From contig CT868185.1 in assembly GCA_000165425.1 (NCBI GenBank), positions 496,001 to 539,671 of the forward strand: a stretch of DNA of 43,671 nucleotides, in the 5' to 3' direction. Below, in pieces: positions 1 to 39,449 of the stretch. How positions within the stretch are numbered: position 1 is the stretch's first letter; every line of letters begins with the position of its first letter. Below the pieces are notes generated by a model that was given only the letters and a program-made list of their open reading frames with translations, was not told where the DNA came from and did no database searches. The translations under genes were made by a program, and so were the position numbers. Source of the stretch: Paramecium tetraurelia. Taxonomy: Eukaryota.

Positions 1-1258
1 ACAACTTGAACCAACTGAACCTGTCCATGAACGCATAAATTACAATCCCCTTAGAAAAGCCAAAGAGCAGGTCCTAATCAATGATCCCATTCACATCTAA
101 TGCCCCGAAGGAGTCTAAAAACTGAAACACATTATCACATTTAATGCCTCTAAGAAATAAATCACCAGCTTATCCTATTTACAATTGGACGAGAGATTTC
201 TGCTTATTACATCAATCGATGGAATCATTAAGATATTTGATCTCAATGGAGAGTTGATGGCAGCATACAATATAAATCACCCATTGCCAATTAAGTGGGA
301 AGTTAGATATACGAAGCAATCAGAACTCAAAAAAAGAATCATCTATGGATTCAAAGTTATTGATATTCTTAGAAAGTAATCCAAAACAGAAAAAGAAGCT
401 GAAATATATAGTCTAACAGATTCATTATAGGTTAAGAGGTAGAACTCATTTTCCTTATAAAATCTAAACAAAAAACCATTAATCATGAAGGATGAGTTTA
501 GTCCAAGGGATTTAAAATTTGAAAAGATTAGACACTTGTATCAGAATGAAGTTCAAGGACCAACACTTAAATAAATGGAAGCACAAAGAAGATTGCAAGA
601 AGTCTAAAATATGTTCAAGAATGACATCAGAGATCCTAAGTTAGATGAAGTGTTGAAACTAAGGGAAAAAGAAAGATAAAAGAATTTAGATAGAGCTGCC
701 AATCTTAATTTCTTGGATCCTGAATTCAGAGACAAAAGCATCTTGAATCAAAAATTGTTAAGCAAAAATGACTATCTAAAAGAATTTAACACCAAACTCG
801 AAAATAACGATTAATCTTCAATTCTACAAAGGTAATACCAATCTAATCAAAACCAACAATCCCAAGTTAATCTTCAAGTTCAAACCAAAAAGAAGCAGAA
901 CTCATCATCCGATTTTTATAAATATGCAGCCTAAAGACATTTGCTAAATGAGGCCAGTATCTTGGAATCCTTCACTTCATAGAATACTCAATTAAAACCA
1001 ATCAACAAATAATTGATTAACATCTAATCTACTTAGATTTCATAATTAAAATCCTTTGGATCTCAGGATTTGACTTGGCATGGATAACATAGGAAACAAT
1101 AGAAGGATTTGTCATAGGTCCTAACAAGTCTTAATATCAAACTGAGACAAAGCAAGAATTCCCTTGGAGGAGAGACTATTTTGAGAGACATCACAAAGTC
1201 AGACATCACATTTGAAGATTAATTAGATGAATTCACTAAGAAACACAAACTAAAATGA
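1..1258 (+). CDS. WD40-repeat protein, C-terminal part (5' end outside window)
   Basis: Frame from position 2 reads through to TGA 1256-1258 under the ciliate code. WD-like segment QITSLSYLQLDERFLLITSIDGIIKIFDLNG is followed by a low-complexity/coiled tail. Confidence 0.65.
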
Positions 1259-1302
1259 TTGTAAAGTGATAACAATTAGTCTTTTTATTAATATATAAAA
1301 TA

Positions 1303-2492
1303 TCAGTTATAGTTATAATGTAGGCTTGAATGTTTTTTGATAATTGATTTAACTTTATTATCAATTGGGTTTTTTTTATTATTACTTTAACTATTTTATG
1401 TATTAACATTTTATTGTGGTTTGAGCACCGAAATCTTATTGATAGAATGAATGGATGAAGTCTTTGTTTTCATAACTGACTGCCTGTTGTTATTATATTA
1501 GGAGTAATTAATGTTCTTATTCACATTATTACTTTGTAATTAATCTTGTTCTTATGATTATTAATTCTTCAATAGAATTTTTTCACGATGAGTGTCTTCA
1601 TCATCCCAATCATAGATGTATTCAATTCTTAATTCATTTTCCTTCATTATTGACATGAATAAATTTTTAAGATAGTGGTAATCTGGTTTTTCATCAAATT
1701 TGAGATTCTTGGTATATTCAACATAATGCAATAATTATTTGGGATAATTCTTACATAAGGTTTCACTTGATGTGGCTAATTTCTTCTCCATAATTCTGTC
1801 ATATTTGTCTTATTAAGTATTTGCTCTTAAATTTTACCAAGGTAATGTGCCTCTTAAGAAGTACATTATTACGTATCCAAGAGATTCTAGATCGTCTCTC
1901 CTAGATTGCTCAATGCCTAGATGAGTATTTATGGATGCATATCTGGCAGTTCCAGTTAGAGCCTTGTTATCCTTATATGGAATATGCGTGTCTTTGTTGA
2001 TGTACTTTTTAGCCAATCCGTAATCGACCATGTAGACTCTGTCTTTGTGTGATTTGCCCAATAAGAAATTGTCGGGTTTGATGTCCCTGTGTAGGAATTA
2101 TTTGCTATGCAGGAACTCAATGCATTCTAACATTTAGAGTGCTAGTACAGTGACTGATTGCAAGGAGAAGAGGCGATTATTGTCTGTGAAGATGTCTTCG
2201 AGGCTTTTGCCTAACTGTTCCATGACCAAGAAGTTGTAGGCGTCTTGTTGGTAGTAGCCATAATATTTGGGTATGCCAATAATAGGGGAGTTGTTTAGGT
2301 ATTGATAGAGCTTGGATTCAAAGAGCAATTGGGGATGTTTGGTGTCGGATCGCTCTATTTTGATTGCATAATCTTGTCCATTGGCTGTGGCTGAGTAGAT
2401 TTCACCGAATGCTCCAGCTCCCAGTTTTTTGAGTAGCTTATATTATCTAGGGGATAGGAGTAGGCTTACTTATTTAAGAGGAATTCACTCAT
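1303..2492 (-). CDS. CK1: Casein kinase 1 family Ser/Thr kinase
   Basis: ATG 2492, 23-nt intron 2447-2469, TGA 1303-1305. Motifs [66 protein letters not shown]. Confidence 0.97.
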
Positions 2493-2534
2493 ATCCTTAA
2501 TAGTATATTCCATCAGTTAATTAATTATTAAATC
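2493..2534. promoter_or_regulatory. Probable bidirectional promoter (42 bp) between CK1 and the karyopherin
   Basis: Head-to-head ATGs at 2492 (-) and 2535 (+), separated by AT-rich sequence. Confidence 0.55.
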
Positions 2535-5500
2535 ATGGCTGAATTTTCGATTGATAAAGTGTGTCAAGCAATCCAGGTTTTCAATTAAGGACAAGTCGAA
2601 TAGGCTGATAGTTTTCTGAGGAGCTTCTCATAATCAAATGAGGCTTGGGGAATTTGCATTCAAATATTGTAATCGAATCCAGACCCATCATTGGTGTTTC
2701 AATTGTTGCGTATTTTGCAATCCAAAATTCTGTATGACTTCAGTACTTCTAATCTAATCATTCATTAGTTTCACTCACTCCCTCCGAAGTGCAGCAAATC
2801 TATCAGAATTGCATCCAAATCATACTTCACTACAGCGTATAAAATTAAAAATCAACTAGAATATAATGTGTACTTATGTTCATCTATTTATACTTGTACA
2901 CCTACTCACAGCAAACCAAATCGATACTAGAGTAATCACATTATTAATCATTTAGAGTCATTGCCCAAATCCTTGATTACTCTCAAAACAACAGTCCTCA
3001 TCAGAAGTTTCTATTTGATGTCTTGGAGACCCTCCCTGAAGAATTGACCGAAAACAAAAAGATCATCATAGACGATGAGAAGAGGAAGTTAATTGCTCAA
3101 GACATCAAAAACAAACAAATGCTAGACATCCTAACCTACCTCCAAACTCAATGGAATGCAGTCCCAGACGATTCGATTAAGTATCACATTCTGAGATCTT
3201 ATAAAAAGTGGTTGGAATTCATGAAATCTAGTATCACAGAAGAAGAAGTAATTAAATTTCTTAAATTAGGCTATTCAATTTATGCAATTGAGCTGTCAAA
3301 CTACCCTATTCAAAGGTACACTCGATTCCATAAATAACGAGGAATTGTAGAGCAAAGCAGTAGAAGCAATATGCACATTTGTTGGTATTATCCCTAAAAC
3401 AATATGTGAATAACCTCAATTAGAACCTTAGGTTTTACAAGTGTTATTCGATGAGATGTATAAGACATTTCCAAAATGCAAAAAGGCATTGGATGAAGAA
3501 GCAAGTGAAGAGATTCATAACTTAGTTAAATTATATTCTAAGGCAGGTAAGAAATTTATCCACAAAATTCTACTCAACGCATAATTGGAACCATTTATAC
3601 AGACCCTCCTTTGGGTGTTCTGTCATGACAATTCATTTACTGAGAGTGACATCCTGACTGATTTTTGGATTAAAATGATCAAGACCATTAGGATTATGAA
3701 TGATTTGTAATTGTAGAACAAGTTCTCATTAACATTTGAATAGCTTATCAATGGATGTGTTTAAAAGAGTAAGGTGAATAAAATACTGTTGGCTGAGTAT
3801 GGCATTTCCCCTCAGATTAAGGATGAATTTGAGTAGCAATTGGATACAAGATCATAAATGAAAGAGATCATGGAGGAATTAGTAACTATCATACAACCAA
3901 ATCTAATTATTCAACATTTGGGAGGCATATTAAAGACAGAAAACTTTCCTCAAATGAGTGAAAATGGTTGGATTACGTTCGAAGCCTGTATGAATTTAAT
4001 CAGCGGAATTATTAAATAAATTATATTGAAGAATGACTAGGTTGGAGTTTAATACTTAATGGAGATTATCAAGTTGTATTTGGACGTGTATTAGTAGTAA
4101 CCATTAGCCAGCAACAATTTCATAATGAAATCAGGTATGAATTAATTCTAAGTTAGTTTTCAAAACAATATCTTAAGGTTGTGCTTAGTTGATTTCCTCC
4201 AATGAATTGTTGCCATCTCTATTTAATTTCATAACAATAGGAATTCATCATTAAGTATCCTCTGTTTAAAAGAAAGCAACTAAAGCATTCTAATTGATTT
4301 GCTAATAAAATCAAAATTTTGTGTTGCTTCATTTGAATCAATTTTTAGATCTCATATTTAAATTGCAATCAGTGTAATCTATAACTTTTATCATTTAGAT
4401 CTAACTATGACAATTTAATAAAAGGAGTAGCAAATGCAATTTGTTCAAGTTAAGAGACAATGTAAAATTATTATTTAAAGTTGTGTTCAATCTTTGCTTA
4501 AAATTTGGTTCAATTGTAATAGTAAATCGAAGAATTGTTAGTGAAATCTGTTGGATCAGATACGCTGGAAGACAAGATTAAACAATTCAGTAAAAACATC
4601 TCTAGTTTGGCTTTTGTGAATAGCTAAATTCCTGCAAATGAATCGAATGAGTATTTAACAGTTAGAGTTTTAATTGTTAATGTTTATTAATAACTTTGGC
4701 CAATGTTAAAATTTGGCATGGAGAGAATAGCCATATTTGAGCATGGAGTAGCTGAGAAAATAGTGAGATACACAAAACACACTTTTAGAAAAACCTTTAA
4801 TCAATTTTCTGTTGAGTTACTCACCTAGGTCTTTTAGAGTTTCTTGAATGTCTATAGATAGGTTCCAATAACAGCTTGTATCTATGTAGCAGAGGTATCA
4901 GCAACTGTATTTTATAAATACCCTGAATATCGTAATCTGTTGTCAGAGGCCTTTGAGAATCTCTGCAATATTACATTCCAACATTTGCCTCAATTGTCAA
5001 GTTTCGAAGAGAATCCTGACTTGACAGAAGATTTATTTGGAATGCTTGTAAGATATGGTAGATACACACCAGTGTTATTGTTACAAAGTTCAGCATTATA
5101 AACAATTTTGTAATTGACTTTGATGGCAATTGGATTGGAACATGTAGGTGCTGCGAAAGTATTTTACTCGTGGTTAGAAGTGACTTTCTTGATGTTGAAA
5201 CCCCAAGATGAAGCATTCAAAGTGCAAATCCCTTAGGAATATAAAGACAGTATTAATTAATATATAAATGATTAGAATTCCAATAAATCATCACTCCATT
5301 TATTCCTCAATTCACCTCAAAGTTATTTGAAGCTCTGAGAAAGGGACCGACTGATGAAGAAGTAGAAGATTACATTGAGGATTGCATCGTAGCCTTATCC
5401 AAACTCTCCTTCATTGAATATCACAAATTGTTGAGTTAGGTCTTGGAGGAGGGACCCTAAAACATCTTGACTTAATCCGAGAAAAAAACATGGATAGAAA

Positions 5501-29029: not shown

Positions 29030-32000
29030 TCAAAATATATCAATACTTTTGATACTTTAGTATCTGTTAGAACTTAATTATTTTAATTAGTTATACATGT
29101 GTGACAATTATTAATCAGATTGTTATTTATTGTAATTAAGAGAATTCTAAATTTGTAATAATATAACAAATTAATTACATTGTCTCGATACTATTCAGAT
29201 TGAAAGTCAACTGAATTTCTTTATTAAGCCATTTCACCAAAAAAGGAATTTTTATGTCTTGTTAGAGATTGAATTGGTAACAATTTTTTTATTTATCTTC
29301 CTTAAGCCTAAAATAACTTAAAAACATACTCTTTCAGGAGAAAACTATTAAATAGGCTGCTATTCTTTGGTTCCTTCAGCTATTTTCTCTAATTTCTTCA
29401 AAATATAACTATCTATTGGAGATTGCAACAAACCTTCGTCACTCTTTTTCAAATATTGAGATGATGACTTCTACTTCAAAGGCAATTTTAAGGGGGAGTA
29501 TAAGTTTACTAAATTGCTTTGAATGGGTTTAATTTACAAAGTAGACATTATATCTGTATCCTATAGTAATTGTTGCGATTCGTTAATTAAGTTCATTTTC
29601 TCCTTTAATTTTTGAATTTTATTGATGCTATCATTTTCAATAGAACTTTCATTTTTACTCTATGTCTTCTGCAATAGTACATTTGGATCAAGATTTCTGA
29701 TATTTCTCCTCTTTCTACTGATGACCCCATTATTAATGGAAGATTTTTCATTCCCAATATATAACCCCAAATTTTAATCAGAAAACATCAAGCCCTAAGA
29801 CTGTAGTTGCTATCTCTATATTTTTTTTTCCTCAATTAAAAAATTATAATAATTCTCTCCCTATTTTGCTAACTCTTATTTATTTTACAATGTGCTGTTA
29901 TTCTTCTTCTATAATTCTTTATTCAACTTCTATATAGAGGTTTATTCCTTTAATAATTTTTTCTTTTTCTAGAAATACAGGGATTCTATTAATGTTAATT
30001 ATTATTGATGATTTTTCATTATTTATATATATTTATTTATACATTTCTGAATAAATTTATGAATAAAATTACAATTGTAATTAAATCAAGTTTCAAATTC
30101 ATTTCCTATCCTCTCATTTTTAAATTCATTTTGCAATATAGGATTAATAATCTACTAATCATTCAGTTTGATTGTATTGAGTTGGTATTTCATATTCTAA
30201 ATCTGTAATTCCTTTTATTGTTCAACACCCTCTTATTAATTAATTTTTCTTTATTGATCCTTAATCTAAGCAGTCAACTCATTAATTCTCTTAGTAAAGA
30301 ATTCAAATTAAGCGTCAGCCTAATATTGAGGTGATGTATTTTTTAATTAAAACAGTTATAATTCTAATTATTTGTTTTTCTTATCCGCAAGATTTAATTT
30401 CTACTCTAATTCCTCAATCAATTACTTTTAAATCACCAATTAATCATAACTATCTAAACATTTCTATTTTATTACCTCTTTATTTGTATTCATTTAAAAT
30501 GTCACTCAATTCTTCCACTCTCTATCTTAAGGCCTTGATTAAAGATGTGACATTAGTTCCGTCAGGGATTATGTATTCTTCTTTCTTTAGTAGTTCTAGT
30601 TCTGTGATAATCTCTTATCTCGACCTCAATAGTTCTTCTACTTCAACCAAATACACTCTTCTTTCCTCAGAAATAATGGCAATTTGTTAGACTAGAAAAG
30701 AAGCAGCTTCCTTTTATTGCTAGTCACCCTGAGCATCAATTATTTGAAGTATCCTTTTATTTAATTCATGGTTTTTCATATCAAATTCTTGATGAAGAGA
30801 TTAAATATTTTGTGTTAATCGGTCGATTTAGTATTTTAAAGCTCTAATTTATTCTTCCTTTCTAGCATTATCCTATAGCAATTGAGTCCATTTCCTATAA
30901 CATTCATTATCTCTGCCTTCCCACTCTATTAATTATTTTTTTAATTAAGTAAGTTCTCTAGAATTCTGTTCAAGCATTTAGATGTGATGTTGAGGACTAT
31001 TAATATTTATAAGAATATTACTTTCCTGAAACATTGGATAGTAATTAAGTAATTTGCTTTTTTTATCCTTAAATTTCTTCATCTTTTAATTATAGTATTT
31101 TCCTTAATTATAGGATTTCAGCCTTCAATATAAATTATTCATTTACATTCTATATTGCTATCTTCTTTCCAATATCTGTAATTTTGTATTCTTCTATTTC
31201 TGCCAATCTAAGTTCATTTTCTTTTCTACATTATTCAAGTTTGGCCTATAAATCCTTAGTAAATGGTTCTACAGATTGGTACTTTGCCTAAAGATGAGTA
31301 TAACTGTAATATACTTATATATTTGAAAACTCGCTTGATAATTTCTCGTATCTGAATTATAAATCAAGAAATGCCTATGACTTTTTATCATAATCTGCCT
31401 ATTATTACAAAACCTATGTCCTTAAATCATTATTTTCTCTGTCTAATTAGGAGATGATTTATTAAGCTGTTTCAATATTTTTATTTTTAATCAGATCCTA
31501 AGTAGTTTCATCAATTTTTTGTTTATCTGCCATCAAAATAGAATCAGGACTGAAATGCTTGATTTGAAATGGAATTTATTATGATGATTATTATTAAATT
31601 ACCGGTGTTTGTTAATTTTGGAATTCTTAATTTTTTTATTTTACGAAATCAACAACTGATATTTTCATGTCTTTAACTGGCTGATTGGGTTTCTTTTATT
31701 TGTATGCCATCTTTGTATCGCTATAAAATGTGTAGAGAATTGGGTATTTTCCAAATTGGATTATGTCTCCACTAAATATTTCAAATTATTGTCCTTTTCC
31801 CACATTAACTCCGTTTACAAATGTTCCATTCAGAGACTGCTTATCAACGATTAAGATTTTATCCTGCACTAATATTTCACAATGTTGTTTCGATATTGAA
31901 GGATGCTATTTTACATAGGATGGCAATTACATCAATCTTGAGGTGACATTTGTCTACTCTGCCAACAACATACACTTTAGATTGAATTTAAATTGGTGAA

Positions 32001-32032
32001 CCGTCTTCGGGCATTAAACATGGATAACTCAT
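29030..32032 (-). CDS. N-terminal FHA domain plus long coiled-coil protein
   Basis: VVGRVDKCHLKID..HPSISKQHCEI...DKQSLNGTFVNG...GDIIQFG is the FHA G-R/S-x-x-H/N-G signature. The 3' end near 29030 assumes a 32-nt terminal intron. Confidence 0.8.
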
Positions 32033-33173: not shown

Positions 33174-36100
33174 ATGTCCGACATTGATGAAGAGTCTTCG
33201 AAATTATTCTCGTAAGATTCTATGCAGCAGGACGATGACGACGAACATTAGAGATTAGACAACGATGACATTTGGAAGGTCCTTCAAATGTTTTTTTAAA
33301 CTCATGGATTGGTCTCATAGTAAATAGGCTCGTATGAAAGCTTCGTTGAAAATGTGATCAAATTTGTAAGAGGACATGAAGGTACTTTTGTTGTCAGAGT
33401 CAAACCTCAATACAAAGAAGAAGAGCGGCAAGAAGGTATTATGAAATAAATTCTACTTTAGCTTATCTTGAATACCTATATCAATTCTAAATAACAAGAT
33501 GTTTCATGGGAAAAAAGAATATTCACGTGGATAAATTTGAGGAAGAAATCTTTCCTATGATCGCTCGATTAAGAGATCTTACCTACTCAAGATAACTAAA
33601 AATAGACTTAGAAGTCACGATGTAATAAAGAAATAAAAGGGATGGCACAATAGAAGAGAAAAGTAAACAATAATTTAAAGGACTACCTTTTTTCAAATTG
33701 CCCATAATGGTAAGAAGTAGGTTTTGTTCATTGCAAAAAGATCCGAAGGATGCTGAACTAATATAGCTGAGAATATAAAATGGGGAGTGTGGATTCGATC
33801 AAGGAGGATATTTTATATTAAGAGGATCTGAAAAAGTTATTGTTGCTTAGGAAAGAATTGCAAACAATGTGGTGTTAGTTTTCAAAAGCAAAATAGTCAA
33901 TAAACCATGGGTGGCTGAAATTAGATCATAACCAGACTTATTTTCCAATCCAAATGTCTTTAAAGTTGAACTTCGATATATTTAAAACACTCCTGTTATC
34001 AGATGCAGTGTTAAACAATTCAATTCAACTCAAGGAATACCACTTTTTACTTTATTCAGAGCCTTGGGCATCAGTAGTGATTAAGAGATTTTAGAAAGGA
34101 TCGTTTACAATTTAGAAGATGAATTTATGGGTCCCATGTTAGAAATGTTGTATGGGTCTTTGCAGGAAGGAGGTGAATATGAAGATGAAGAATTATGTTT
34201 GAGATGGATAGGAAATAAAATAAAGAAGGCTGAAAATTAAGATCCTGAAACTTTGATTTAGGAGGCTAAAAAATTGATTAATAAAAATATCTTACCACAT
34301 ATTGGAGTCTCAACTGAAAGTAGAGACAGAAAAGCTTATTTTTTGGGATATATAGTTCATAGACTATTGAATGCATCATTGGGAAAAACAGATTAGGATG
34401 ACAGAGATCATTATGGCAAAAAAAGATTGGACATGGCCGGAGCTATGATGATGGGAGTGTTCAAGACATCATTCGAATAATTTAAATAGAATTCTAAAAA
34501 GGCCTTAGAGAAATACATCAATGGGGGAAGAAGAGGAAGAGGATAACAAACAAAAATAGAGAATATGAGACAGCCCGATGATATTAAATCCTTTTTTGAT
34601 GGAGAATAAATATCCAAAGACATCGACAATGCATTAGCCACTGGAAATTGGGGAAGAAGTAAGGAAGGTTAAGTTGTTAAGACAGGAGTGGCTTAAACTT
34701 TAAAGAGAGAGACATCATTATTTGCAACTCTTAGTCATTTGAGAAGGATGAACGCACCAATTAATCCATAAATGAAATTGAGTAAACCTAGACAATTACA
34801 TAACACTCATTTTGGATTCATCTGTCCAGCTGAAACACCTGAAGGATAAAAAATTGGTATCGTCAAGAACTTATCTTTAATGACTACTGTTTCAAATGAT
34901 TTATAATCAAAAGACAAAGAAACATTGTTAAAATTGATTATGGTTTCTTAATAAAATGACTTTGACTTTATCTTGCTTCAAGGAGATTTCTAAGCCTAAG
35001 ACATACCCAGAATGACGAAAGTATTAGTCGATGGTAATTGGATAGGATTTACTAGAAACCCTGAATAATTCATTCATGAATTCAAAAACCTTAGATCCGC
35101 TGAAGAATCTTACATTCCTATTGAAGTATCCATCAACTTCGATTACGTGAATAAAGAAATTAGAATCTACACTGATGCTGGAAGATGCATGAGACCTTTA
35201 TTTATTGTCCAGAATAATAAATTAAAGTTGATGAAGGGTGTTCTAAATCAAATAAATGATTGGGAAGAATTATTGAAAAATAAATGTGTAGAATTATTGG
35301 ATGTCGAAGAAGAGGAAGGTTCTTTAATAGCCATGGACATAGATATTATGATGAGAGGTACACAGAACTTTAAGAGATACACTCATTGCGAAATACACCC
35401 ATGTATGATGTTTGGTGTTTGTGCATCAGTTATTCCATTTGCTAATCACAACTAAGGGCCAAGGAATACTTTATAAAGCGCTATGGGTAAATAGGCTATG
35501 GGATTGAATTCAACAAATTTCAATATCAGATTTGACACATTGGTTCATATCTTACATTATCCTCAAAAACCCTTAGCATCATCAAGAGCAGTAGATTTTA
35601 TCACAGTTAATGAAGTTCCCATAGGCATAAATTGCGTTACATCAATTGCATGTTTTACAGGGTATAACCAAGAAGATTCAATTATTATCAATTAGTATGC
35701 AATAGACAGAGGATTCTTCCGATCTGTCTTCTATAGAACATATAAAGAATCAGAGGATAAGGATCCTGATAATTTCACTGAAACTAAAATAACAAAACCT
35801 ATTGGTGACAATTTTGCAGGCAAATTATTTATCAAATTAGATAGTGATGGAATTGTACCACCAGGAACTAAAGTAGATGAAGAGGAGCCTATTATAGGAA
35901 AAGAATTAATTATAGATAATATAATGTTGAACACAGCAAACGGTTAAAAAAATACAAAGGAATGTTCATTATTAACAAGGAGAGCAGAAAGAGGAGTTGT
36001 TGATTCTGTTTTGATTAGCGAAAATCAGAAAGGATATAAATTAGTAAAAGTAAAGGTGAGGTCATTAAGAATCCCACAAATCGGAGACAAGTTTTGCAGC

Positions 36101-36893
36101 AGACATGGACAAAAGGGAACTTGTGGAATGACTTATCGACAAGAAGATTTACCTTACACTCTTGTAGGCATTTCTCCAGATTTAACTATCAATCCACATT
36201 GTATTCCATCAAGAATGACCATAGGTAATATTATGTAATGAATGTAGGACATTTAATTGAATGTTTGTCATCAAAATTAGCTTCCATCAAGGGGTAGTTC
36301 AATGATGCTACACCATTTGCATAGATATTAGTAAATGATATTGCTAATGAATTGCATAAAGTTGGATGGCAAAAATGGGGTAATGAGGTTATGACGAATC
36401 CCTACACGGGTAATATGTTTTCAATTCCTATTTTTGTTGGACCTACTTATTATTAGAGATTAAGACATTTAGTAGATGATAAGATGTATGCAAGATCGAG
36501 AGGACCTGTAACTGGAATCACCAGATAACCTACTCATGGTAGGAGTAGAAAGGGAGGATTAAGATTCGGTGAAATGGAAAGAGATTGCATTATTTCACAT
36601 GGTAATATACATTAAATTTTATTATAGGCACTGCTAAATTTTTAAAGGAAAGGACATATGATGTATCAGATGCATTCAGAGTTCACGTTTGTTCTAAATG
36701 TGGAATGTTTGCTGTTGCTAATTTGGAAAATCAAGAATTCTACTGCAATTTATGCAAAAATCAAAATAATCAAAATAAAATTTATTAAGTTCAAATGCCA
36801 TATGCAGCAAAGACCCTAATTTAAGAGCTGATTTCAATGAATATTGCTCCGAGATTGAAATTTGATTAATCGAAAATGAAACATGAAATTTGA
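33174..36893 (+). CDS. RPB2: DNA-directed RNA polymerase II second-largest subunit, divergent
   Basis: [96 protein letters not shown]-terminal CSKC..CNLC zinc site. Introns 33436-33461, 36225-36247, 36602-36627. TGA 36891-36893. Confidence 0.97.
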
Positions 36894-36921: not shown

Positions 36922-39332
36922 TCAATTATGTTTTAGTAGTTGAAATATTTAATTAACATTTATAGGCTTTTATAGATACCCATCAAATAATGATAACTAA
37001 GATATTTCAGTTTTAGAATGAGCTGAGCATGCAATGATTTGTGTATTCACTCGCTCTCTAATCATAGATACAGCCTAATAACCATTAATGATTGGCATTT
37101 CAATATCCATAAGAATATAATCATATGTAGAATGTAGATTACATCCATTATAAGCATCAATCTTTGCGATTGCCTCCTTCACCGAGTATGCCTTAAAAAA
37201 TACTTTAAATTCAAAATGAATACTTTGTCAATTATCAAATCATATTGTTTCAGCTAACTCTCAACAATTGAAATGTTAAAAGGCATATCATCCACAATTA
37301 ATATTTGTACACATTTACATATACTAATATTACTCGGGGATTAAACCATTTCATTATACTTGCACATTTAAGGTATATTCCTAAGCTAATTGACAATCCC
37401 TTCGTTATCTTCATCATATAAGATACACACACTATCGTCAATATCCTTCTTATTGTGAATCTTAAATGAAAATGTCGATCCCTGGTTTTCCCCCTCTGAG
37501 TACACTTTGATCTCTTATCCTAATTTCTAAGCCAATATATTCGATATCATCAATCCTAAGCCAACTCCAGTAATATTATCACTATTCTCCAATCTACCAA
37601 AAGCTGTGAATAGTTTGTTTTATTCATTCTTAGGTATCCCTATCCCGGTATCCTTCACTTTTATTTCAACACAATCTTCGTCTAAATCTAAATAAATAGT
37701 AATTCCACCTGTTTCTGTAAACTTAATTGCATTTGATAACAAATTTAAAATTATTTGCTTAACTCTGTTTGGGTCTGTTGTTATCCACTGAGGAACGTGT
37801 TTCTATTATTCTAATTTCATATACAGTCCTTTTGAATTCGCCTATATTTTCATTATCTCAATGATTTCATTTATTAACTCAGTTATCTTAACTTATTAAA
37901 ATTATAAATTAAATTTCCCAGCTTTCAACTATGCTACATCCAAAAGATCATTTACTAAACTTAACAATGAAGAAGCCATAGATTTAATGGGTTACATTGA
38001 CTTTTCTAACTATTTTACACACTAATCGTTTGCGTTATGATTAGGGTTTAAAACAGTTCCAACGCTTTGAATGATTATATTTAAAGGTGTTTTGAATTCA
38101 TGTGCTACCTTATATAGCATTTGGGATTTATTAAAATTAGTTTTTTCTAGAGCGGCTATTTAATTCACATGAGTAATATCTCTTATTATAAATAAAATGA
38201 ACCCTTTATTATATGCGATGTAAGGTTTTAAAATTACTTAGAATATCTTTTGCATCTCTCCTTAGCATATGATGCTAATGTCCTAGAAGAACTTTAATGT
38301 TAATGAATTTAAATCACATTTAGGTTCTCTTTCCAACATTTGTTTAAAAATTTACTTAACTTCATCAATTATTATTGGAGATTATGATAAGTTATTATAA
38401 TGCTATTCATTATCTTGATTATTTTAATCCTCCTCTTCTTATTCTACAGAGCTCTTCAATTAGATGTAATCTGATTTTTCATTACCCAAGCTTTTTGATC
38501 TGGATTTCAACTTTTTATATAGAATCAAAAACAATTATTAATAATTATCTTATTCCGAATTTATTGCATTTCTTAGAGCTAACAATTTCTATTTTGCAAC
38601 ATCAGCAAAGGTTTCATTCATCAAACTTCTAAATGCTGCATTATTAAATTAAACATGAAGTTATTCATCTAATATTAAAACTCCATCAGGAAATGCAGTT
38701 AATAATTTTTTGAATAAATTGTATTCTGTTTGTTCAATTTCCTTGTTCGGTGATTATTAACCAATTTCCAAAACATGCTGTTTATATTATATTGAATCTC
38801 TTTTTGTTATCATGCTGAGAATTTCAGATTTTGAGGTTTCTTTTATTTTGGTTTTGTTTTTATAATGAGTGTAGAACAAATAAGCTGCACTTGTTGATAG
38901 GAATGCCAAAATCTCACAAATGGTGATGATATCAATTTTTAAACTAATCACTACAATACCAATTGCACTAATGAAACATGTCCACCATGATTTCATAGCC
39001 ATAATAATTGAACAACCAACAGCCACATACATTATTGGCGATTACAATAGCATAGCATTCAAAATCATTATTATTATTGTGCTCATATTTATGATTGAAA
39101 ATACCAAATTATTTTCTTTTAACAATCTAGTTGACAATATTCCTGCTGATAAACAAATCAGTGCAATTGAATAATCAGAACTACCTACAAAGCTCATATA
39201 TAACACATGATCTAATATTCCAAACACCAAAAGATTTCTCATTTTTTTAAACCTATTAAACTATAAAATAATAATCTTATAAACTTTATAATTAACATAT
39301 ATGATATCATTGTTGTATTTTTAATGTTTCAT
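36922..39332 (-). CDS. Membrane-bound hybrid histidine kinase (TM region, PAS-like, HisKA, HATPase_c, receiver)
   Basis: Hydrophobic N-terminus, AFPDGVLILD, H-box VAHEFKTPLN, N-box QIILNLLSNAIKFT, DTGIGI, GVGLGLMIS, receiver LIVDD..MDIEMP..KP. TGA 36922-36924. Start at 39332 or 39242 (same frame). Confidence 0.93.
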
Positions 39333-39449
39333 AATTTATATATCAAATTGTAAGACTTTTTTCCATTATAAGTGATAGGTTCATTTGTTATTGCATATTA
39401 GTTTTGATTAATATTATAAGTTTACCTTAAAGCCATAGATCATAATTTA

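Follow-up and report, generated by a model that had tools for sequence, protein, structure and literature searches.

The gate residue in described polymerases

In yeast RNA polymerase II (Pol II), Tyr769 of the second subunit Rpb2 stacks on the base that is frayed or first to be backtracked, and it has been proposed to limit further backtracking (PMC7132196, accessible sections). The available text of a second study likewise describes stacking of Tyr769 on the frayed base and reports that Y769A promoted the backtracked state in simulation (PMC4838855), and excerpts of a third place the residue next to metal C and predict reduced activity for Y769A (10.1101/2023.09.22.559052). As far as the accessible portions of PMC7132196 and 10.1101/2023.02.27.530048 go, Y769F is a gain-of-function allele that yields a faster Pol II and interacts with trigger-loop residues, its genetic partners including the trigger-loop allele F1084R. 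Support for the gating-tyrosine model comes from yeast structures, from simulation and from a few engineered alleles.

The closest engineered counterparts of the gene described here are yeast rpb2-Y769F, A, W and G and Arabidopsis NRPB2-Y732F, in which the same site is altered and growth is supported. In the available material of PMC7132196, growth of the F allele is stated in the text; that of the A, W and G alleles is taken from the figure labels, where W and G appear, and from a referee comment that yeast Y769A has no MPA/Mn phenotype. The aromatic ring thus seems dispensable for growth, and the change from Tyr to Phe alters speed in both yeast and plants according to the same partial source. 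All of these are single changes in a Tyr background, and Y769L is absent among the yeast alleles found in that material, whereas the ciliate change arose naturally, is fixed and goes with changes in neighbouring residues.

Outside Pol II, tyrosine occupies the column in the Pol III subunit C128/RPC2 of yeast and human, in agreement with a preceding sequence-only reading of this DNA, and the column corresponds to positions 717 (yeast) and 687 (human) of the Pol I second subunit, both of which we take to be tyrosine. The beta subunit of E. coli RNA polymerase, otherwise distant in sequence, has Met681 there and is likewise non-aromatic, an equivalence that follows the R-x-x-[YLM] register and not a structural superposition; bacteria use Gre factors in place of TFIIS. 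Non-Tyr gates also occur in giant-virus RPB2, with Leu in one locus (L242) and Phe in nine others caught by our pattern, which picks out Phe/Leu codons and so gives no frequency. These cases are independent, viral and mostly still aromatic. A further parallel is Oxytricha RPB2b or plant NRPD2, with a divergent RPB2 in a lineage whose genome undergoes RNA-guided rearrangement, as here; those proteins coexist with a canonical paralog, whereas in the ciliate clade described below all copies seen in the named genomes are of the Leu type.

RPB2 of Paramecium tetraurelia

The window, the whole stretch of 43,671 nucleotides that was analysed, contains a P. tetraurelia RPB2 gene with the following parts.

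33174..36893, + strand: RPB2, Pol II second subunit (spliced model equal to P0002; seven Rpb2 Pfam domains; RNA reads from one strand)
33174-33435, 33462-36224, 36248-36601 and 36628-36893, + strand: RPB2 exons (joined translation checked against P0002)
33436..33461, + strand: intron 1, 26 nt (26-nt deletion in an RNA contig; model check)
36225..36247, + strand: intron 2, 23 nt (23-nt deletion in RNA contigs; model check)
36602..36627, + strand: intron 3, 26 nt (GT..AG candidate; needed for identity with P0002)

The 1214 residues encoded by the four exons match P0002, the annotated P. tetraurelia RPB2, letter for letter, and all seven Rpb2 Pfam families lie above cut-off, giving complete Rpb2 domains 1-7. 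Ranked against PDB chains, the product scores 165-149 bits with Pol II, compared with at most 103 bits for Pol III and at most 79 bits for Pol I. It carries the QSAMGKQ motif and nests, in a 110-row tree, among ciliate Pol II rows and apart from the Pol III rows. Introns 1 and 2 are spliced out in RNA contigs, and oligo-dT reads on the gene come from one strand at a depth of ~120 near the Leu codon (one RNA run). The genome holds a second, 93% identical copy with a similar share of reads (e.g. 72/128 at 35146); both copies have Leu at column 769 and both appear in oligo-dT RNA reads. Four runs were compared with the gene, and the small-share metatranscriptome runs X19 and X20 carry no weight here; at least half of the sampled words were present in 18 of the 24 listed sequencing runs, three of which are marked as a possible source.

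A FLAG-tagged Paramecium Rpb2 (construct RPB2k, which may be either copy) was located in the somatic nucleus and the meiotic germline nuclei, in the part of the source available. This nuclear localisation points, indirectly only, to Pol II assembly and mRNA transcription in vivo. The best explanation of 33174..36893 is an ordinary working Pol II subunit of Paramecium.

Eleven residues at 34523-34555 are absent from P0130, the protein annotated for the second copy. They probably reflect a mis-called intron, since the second copy's DNA and RNA contigs cross the interval ungapped. The neighbouring genes, a histidine kinase (37179-39380, - strand; HisKA + HATPase_c) and an FHA-domain gene (30970-32028, - strand), show no link to RPB2.

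Leucine at the gate column

35471..35473, + strand: Leu758 (TTA), site of the yeast gating Tyr769 (code 6 translation; ungapped alignment)

Under code 6, the codons CCA AGG AAT ACT TTA TAA AGC GCT ATG at 35459-35485 translate as P-R-N-T-L-Q-S-A-M, exactly as the sequence-only reading had given them, and 35447-35488 as H-N-Q-G-P-R-N-T-L-Q-S-A-M-G. Positions 2-34 of a 34-residue query align without gaps, 33:33, to yeast Rpb2 747-779, where the yeast protein reads HNQSPRNTYQSAMGKQAMG. P. tetraurelia Leu758 therefore occupies column 769, and the equivalence with Tyr769 that had been proposed is borne out by this ungapped alignment. The tyrosine in that yeast stretch is named Y769 in the source data of Leng et al. 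2020 (PMC7132196, as accessible). An aromatic residue able to stack on a backtracked base is absent from this position of P. tetraurelia RPB2.

That a read error was unlikely, as had been argued from the codon, agrees with contigs of two runs, each from a different study (X12 record 6, X18 record 13), which span the Leu codon with no other letter at contig level; for X24, the read-level comparison covered 40 of 591 difference rows. Orthologs agree as well: among the 15 of 24 members listed for the P0002 cluster, all ten full-length Paramecium proteins have Leu and none has Tyr (two each from P. tetraurelia, octaurelia, pentaurelia, sonneborni and primaurelia), the other five being fragments that lack the site. 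The alignment and the Tyr-to-Leu reading have thus stood, but not the picture of a point change in the P. tetraurelia gene alone, for Leu is a fixed trait of a clade and comes with Ser764→Gly.

Distribution of leucine and tyrosine

Among the best 120 of 4233 homolog matches, 116 have Tyr and four have Leu, the latter from P. tetraurelia, T. thermophila, Ichthyophthirius and one Logan protein. A wider sample of 174 diverse homologs holds Tyr in 153, Phe in 16, Leu in three and Cys in one, with one unaligned. This tally has been corrected for P0231, a candidate Leu carrier rejected as an alignment artefact (its motif reads PRNTYQ). Leu is also found in all three full-length Tetrahymena proteins, in both Ichthyophthirius copies and, encoded by TTA, in another Paramecium-type RPB2 that is 67-78% identical to P0002.

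A metagenome motif scan, with Gln763 restricted to TAA/TAG and codons 764 and 769 left free, returned 118 loci, of which 88 were Pol II-type, 29 Pol III-type and one neither. Twelve Pol II-type loci (seven distinct DNA motifs) combine Gly with Leu, 76 combine Ser with Tyr, and none is mixed; the Pol III-type loci are Ser+Tyr in 28 cases and Gly+Phe in one. In Paramecium, Tetrahymena, Ichthyophthirius and the environmental Pol II loci, Leu is always paired with Ser764→Gly. The Leu codons of the clade are TTA, CTT, CTC and TTG, a variety that fits selection acting on the amino acid. Ser and Tyr are kept in Platyophrya (Colpodea), Climacostomum (Heterotrichea) and telomere-capped loci typical of spirotrichs. 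Leu769 is neither an error nor specific to Paramecium.

The exceptional Pol III-type locus, L102, is the sole non-Tyr case in its class, and its Gly764 and Phe769 parallel the Gly/Leu pair. Another scanned record, a bacterial MAG, includes an 80,860-base contig of Paramecium type that uses code 6 and carries an RPB2 (L249; G001:C11:10654-13817), probably through host contamination.

A single origin

The 16 Leu rows form a single clade with support 1.0 in the 110-row tree, from which five short Leu loci (L055, L081, L094, L104 and L107) were left out. A 47-row IQ-TREE phylogeny gives the clade a support of 100 (support type unspecified) and a stem of 0.45, and places a Tyr-type ciliate clade as its sister. 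Mean root-to-tip distance in that tree is 1.50 in the Leu clade versus 0.80 in other ciliates, a rate about twice as high. Three fragments with Leu, P765→T and R766→K join the clade (0.986), where long branches could attract. The named members (Paramecium, Tetrahymena and Ichthyophthirius) all belong to the Oligohymenophorea. Leu probably arose on the stem of that class, whose boundary is drawn here from the named members, scuticociliates and peritrichs not being identified by name. The substitution is real, ancient and clade-wide.

RPB2 fragments in which Leu769 goes with P765→Thr and R766→Lys are P0170, P0317-P0319, P0322 and P0249; they fall with the Leu clade, on long branches.

A full-text literature search, in which subscription journals are largely uncovered and a notice within an alignment figure is possible, returned no paper describing Tyr769→Leu in ciliates. 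The accessible text of the Duan et al. preprint (10.1101/2023.02.27.530048) names no Paramecium, Tetrahymena or ciliates, and the readable supplements of the journal version contain none of the five ciliate genera searched, with ciliate Rpb1/Rpb2 rows possible elsewhere in it. The available portions of PMC8934623, PMC11724296, PMC5416832, PMC11723920, PMC12082453 and PMC1635734 say nothing on residue 769. The Leu769 clade is apparently an unreported variant of a known enzyme.

Accompanying substitutions and kept residues

Compared with the canonical yeast Rpb2 link domain (757-776), the ciliate protein is the same subunit, aligned ungapped, with seven domains and with R766, E529, E836/D837, K979, K987 and R1020 kept. 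It differs in Leu769, Gly764, Asn/His760, Asn781 and an altered fork at 500-506. The changes map as follows.

34754..34861, + strand: fork region, yeast 500-535, clade-wide changes (row comparison, yeast chain)
35441..35446, + strand: Ala748-Asn749 for yeast Pro759-Asp760, start of the link domain (row comparison, yeast chain)
35456..35458, + strand: Gly753 for yeast Ser764 (with Leu in 16/16 Leu-clade rows, in 0/74 others)
35507..35509, + strand: Asn770 for an aromatic residue (yeast Phe781; Tyr in 73/74 other rows)
35582..35617, + strand: Ser795 (for Thr), Val798 (for Met) and Val806 (for Leu), clade-wide, in the hybrid-binding region (row comparison)

In all, 31 diagnostic columns separate the Leu clade from 74 other Pol II rows, a comparison set from which 11 Pol III and nine very divergent rows had been dropped. 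In the fork, these changes are T500→A, R504→P/S/A, G506→M/A, W519→F/Y, C533→I and L535→I/M, with E529 kept; the yeast segment TPIGRDG at 500-506 reads APINPQM in P. tetraurelia. At column 760, Asp is replaced by Asn or His across the clade.

A clade-by-clade test (86/90 rows) found that the Leu clade has lost 14 of 267 columns that are invariant elsewhere, and that each of seven other groups has lost 0-4 of 233-242. Of the 14, seven fall among the 47 conserved columns of the hybrid-binding domain given by Duan et al. (p=0.004) and three among the 17 columns of the link domain (p=0.05, marginal). The 757-817 interval of the enrichment test was picked post hoc, after the data had been seen, and a pooled Fisher test of lost columns, being blind to branch length and clade size, was not relied on. 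As the clade evolves about twice as fast, some losses at invariant sites are expected. Faster evolution accounts for part of the excess, though not obviously for the clustering.

Around these changes, every Leu-clade row with coverage retains E529, Q763, P765, R766, Q776, E836, D837, K979, K987, S1019, R1020, H1097 and K1102. For E529, R766, E836, D837, K979, K987, R1020, H1097 and K1102 this means 15 or 16 of 16 rows, any exception being a gap, and we take these nine residues to contact the NTP, the metals or the hybrid. Their numbering was read from the yeast chain within 487-546, 739-792 and 1088-1141 and is assumed elsewhere. Q531 is replaced by Gly in two rows of the clade.

A proposed re-tuning of the gate and its alternatives

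We favour, with a probability of roughly 0.5, the view that the backtracking gate was re-tuned in the Leu clade long ago, with compensation. The link/hybrid-binding segment would have been re-tuned once on the clade stem, through Y769→L, S764→G, D760→N/H, F781→N and changes at neighbouring positions, with the NTP- and metal-side residues retained. Leu would present neither a ring on which the frayed or first backtracked base could stack nor a hydroxyl close to the trigger loop or the metal C site, so that a one-nucleotide backtrack may be less stabilised and longer backtracks easier, and the gate would behave like an aliphatic, bacteria-like one. Neighbouring changes, and probably changes in RPB1, would offset the catalytic cost. 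On balance, pausing and the reliance on TFIIS-stimulated cleavage would shift to a real, though moderate, degree, with no loss of fidelity. To the narrower prediction, made from the loss of ring and hydroxyl, that a weaker one-nucleotide backtrack and easier longer ones go together with a catalytic cost offset by Gly764 and its neighbours, we assign an even chance. The altered backtracking, proofreading or TFIIS dependence suggested by the sequence-only reading is plausible on chemistry, but weakened by the referee's remark that Y769A has no MPA/Mn phenotype, by E. coli Met681 and by the TFIIS counts given below.

TAR-coded RPB1 trigger-loop patterns had no match in viral and genome contigs, and a general trigger-loop pattern matched 119 viral loci. 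The MAG with the stray Paramecium-type contig yielded, for RPB1, only a bacterial rpoC match, and the ESM Atlas returned generic Rpb2 clusters and no model for RPB2.

A natural, fixed non-aromatic gate in tractable model organisms would provide a direct test of the proofreading gate, and the strict pairing of Gly764 with Leu769 names a specific candidate compensating pair. The combination also makes RPB2 of this clade recognisable in environmental data. Should the substitution have no functional effect, the gate would be dispensable, and the conservation of Tyr would reflect its contacts with the trigger loop or metal rather than backtracking. A more far-reaching form of the re-tuning, which we regard as doubtful, is that the only Pol II of a whole ciliate class would work without an aromatic backtracking gate, with a bacteria-like link and fork, deeper backtracks and TFIIS-reliant proofreading and rescue. 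If true, this would amount to a naturally occurring Pol II whose proofreading regime differs, and it would help to explain the essential TFIIS paralog in developmental non-coding transcription of Paramecium.

Two possible correlates of Leu were considered and found to lack support. According to the available text of PMC4503560, Paramecium has four TFIIS families with the DE dipeptide, with three TFIIS listed for Oxytricha and one for Leu-type Tetrahymena, which gives no support to a tie between Leu and TFIIS expansion. The same goes for a tie to the flat Pol II profile of Paramecium, the profile of Tetrahymena, also Leu, being closer to that of yeast than to that of Paramecium (PMC8997361, in part).

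Near-neutral drift is a strong rival in view of the absence of an MPA/Mn phenotype noted for Y769A, the bacterial Met, the TFIIS counts and the Tetrahymena profile. Leu would have been fixed in a fast lineage, compensated by neighbours and locked by epistasis, with backtracking and fidelity essentially unchanged, a course of events that is quite possible though short of probable. Several residues have changed in this fast-evolving subunit, Leu769 among them, at a site where yeast tolerates substitution. The long branch of the clade, the apparent viability of non-Tyr yeast alleles (accessible parts of PMC7132196) and the occurrence of Met in E. coli, of Phe in 16/174 diverse homologs and of Leu in one giant-virus locus all favour drift. 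The title of a study in which Paramecium is mentioned 11 times, 'A Narrow Range of Transcript-error Rates Across the Tree of Life', points the same way. Opposed to it are the presence of Leu in 16/16 clade rows over several codons, its pairing with Gly764 (16/16 versus 0/74), the clustering of lost invariant columns around the site and the finding that even Tyr to Phe changes speed (PMC7132196, as accessible). Entrenchment also yields invariance, however, and so invariance, pairing and clustering leave drift standing.

It is less likely than either re-tuning or drift, and on the whole unlikely, that the Leu-type protein is a specialised paralog, Pol IV/V-like or akin to Oxytricha RPB2b, that serves developmental non-coding transcription next to a Tyr-type RPB2 unseen in the genomes. 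The long branch, the clustered active-centre changes and the existence of a Tyr-type ciliate sister clade would fit such a role, as would the name RPB2k of the Paramecium construct in its partial source. The annotated Tetrahymena RPB2, TTHERM_00077230, which we infer to be P0003, is strongly up in conjugation (PMC2636879; PMC5312943), but it is expressed in growth too, as far as these sources are available. Tagged Paramecium Rpb2 is likewise found in the somatic nucleus besides the meiotic germline nuclei. No second Paramecium or Tetrahymena RPB2 cluster appeared among the best 120 of 4233, 30 of 32 and best 120 of 4208 homologs, although the cut-offs might have hidden a Tyr paralog, and no canonical paralog at ≥80% DNA identity was seen in the reads of four runs. 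Moreover, both P. tetraurelia and both Ichthyophthirius copies are Leu, both P. tetraurelia copies occur in oligo-dT RNA reads, and the catalytic-side residues are intact.

An error of sequencing or assembly, or a mutation confined to the strain, in favour of which nothing was found, has a negligible chance and is already refuted by the orthologs, with Leu recurring in independent assemblies and species.

Apparently unusual genetic codes among the scanned loci

Four ciliate-like RPB2/RPC2 loci, L040 (483-3869), L006, L110 and L050, read TAA and TAG as Gln and have in-frame TGA opposite Arg. L040 contains 17 TGA codons, and nine of the ten at conserved columns stand for Arg, including the Arg of PSRMT; in L006 it is three of three. 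The literature found by full-text search, available in part, contains nothing that obviously describes UGA as Arg.

A second type is represented by L028, a gene-sized 3.7-kb contig capped by C4A4 telomeres with RPB2 at ~127-3609, which seems to read the three stop codons in three ways. TAA and TAG seldom differ in meaning. At conserved columns of this one gene, TAA corresponds to Glu in 15/18 cases, TAG to Gln in 6/7 and TGA to Cys in 5/7.
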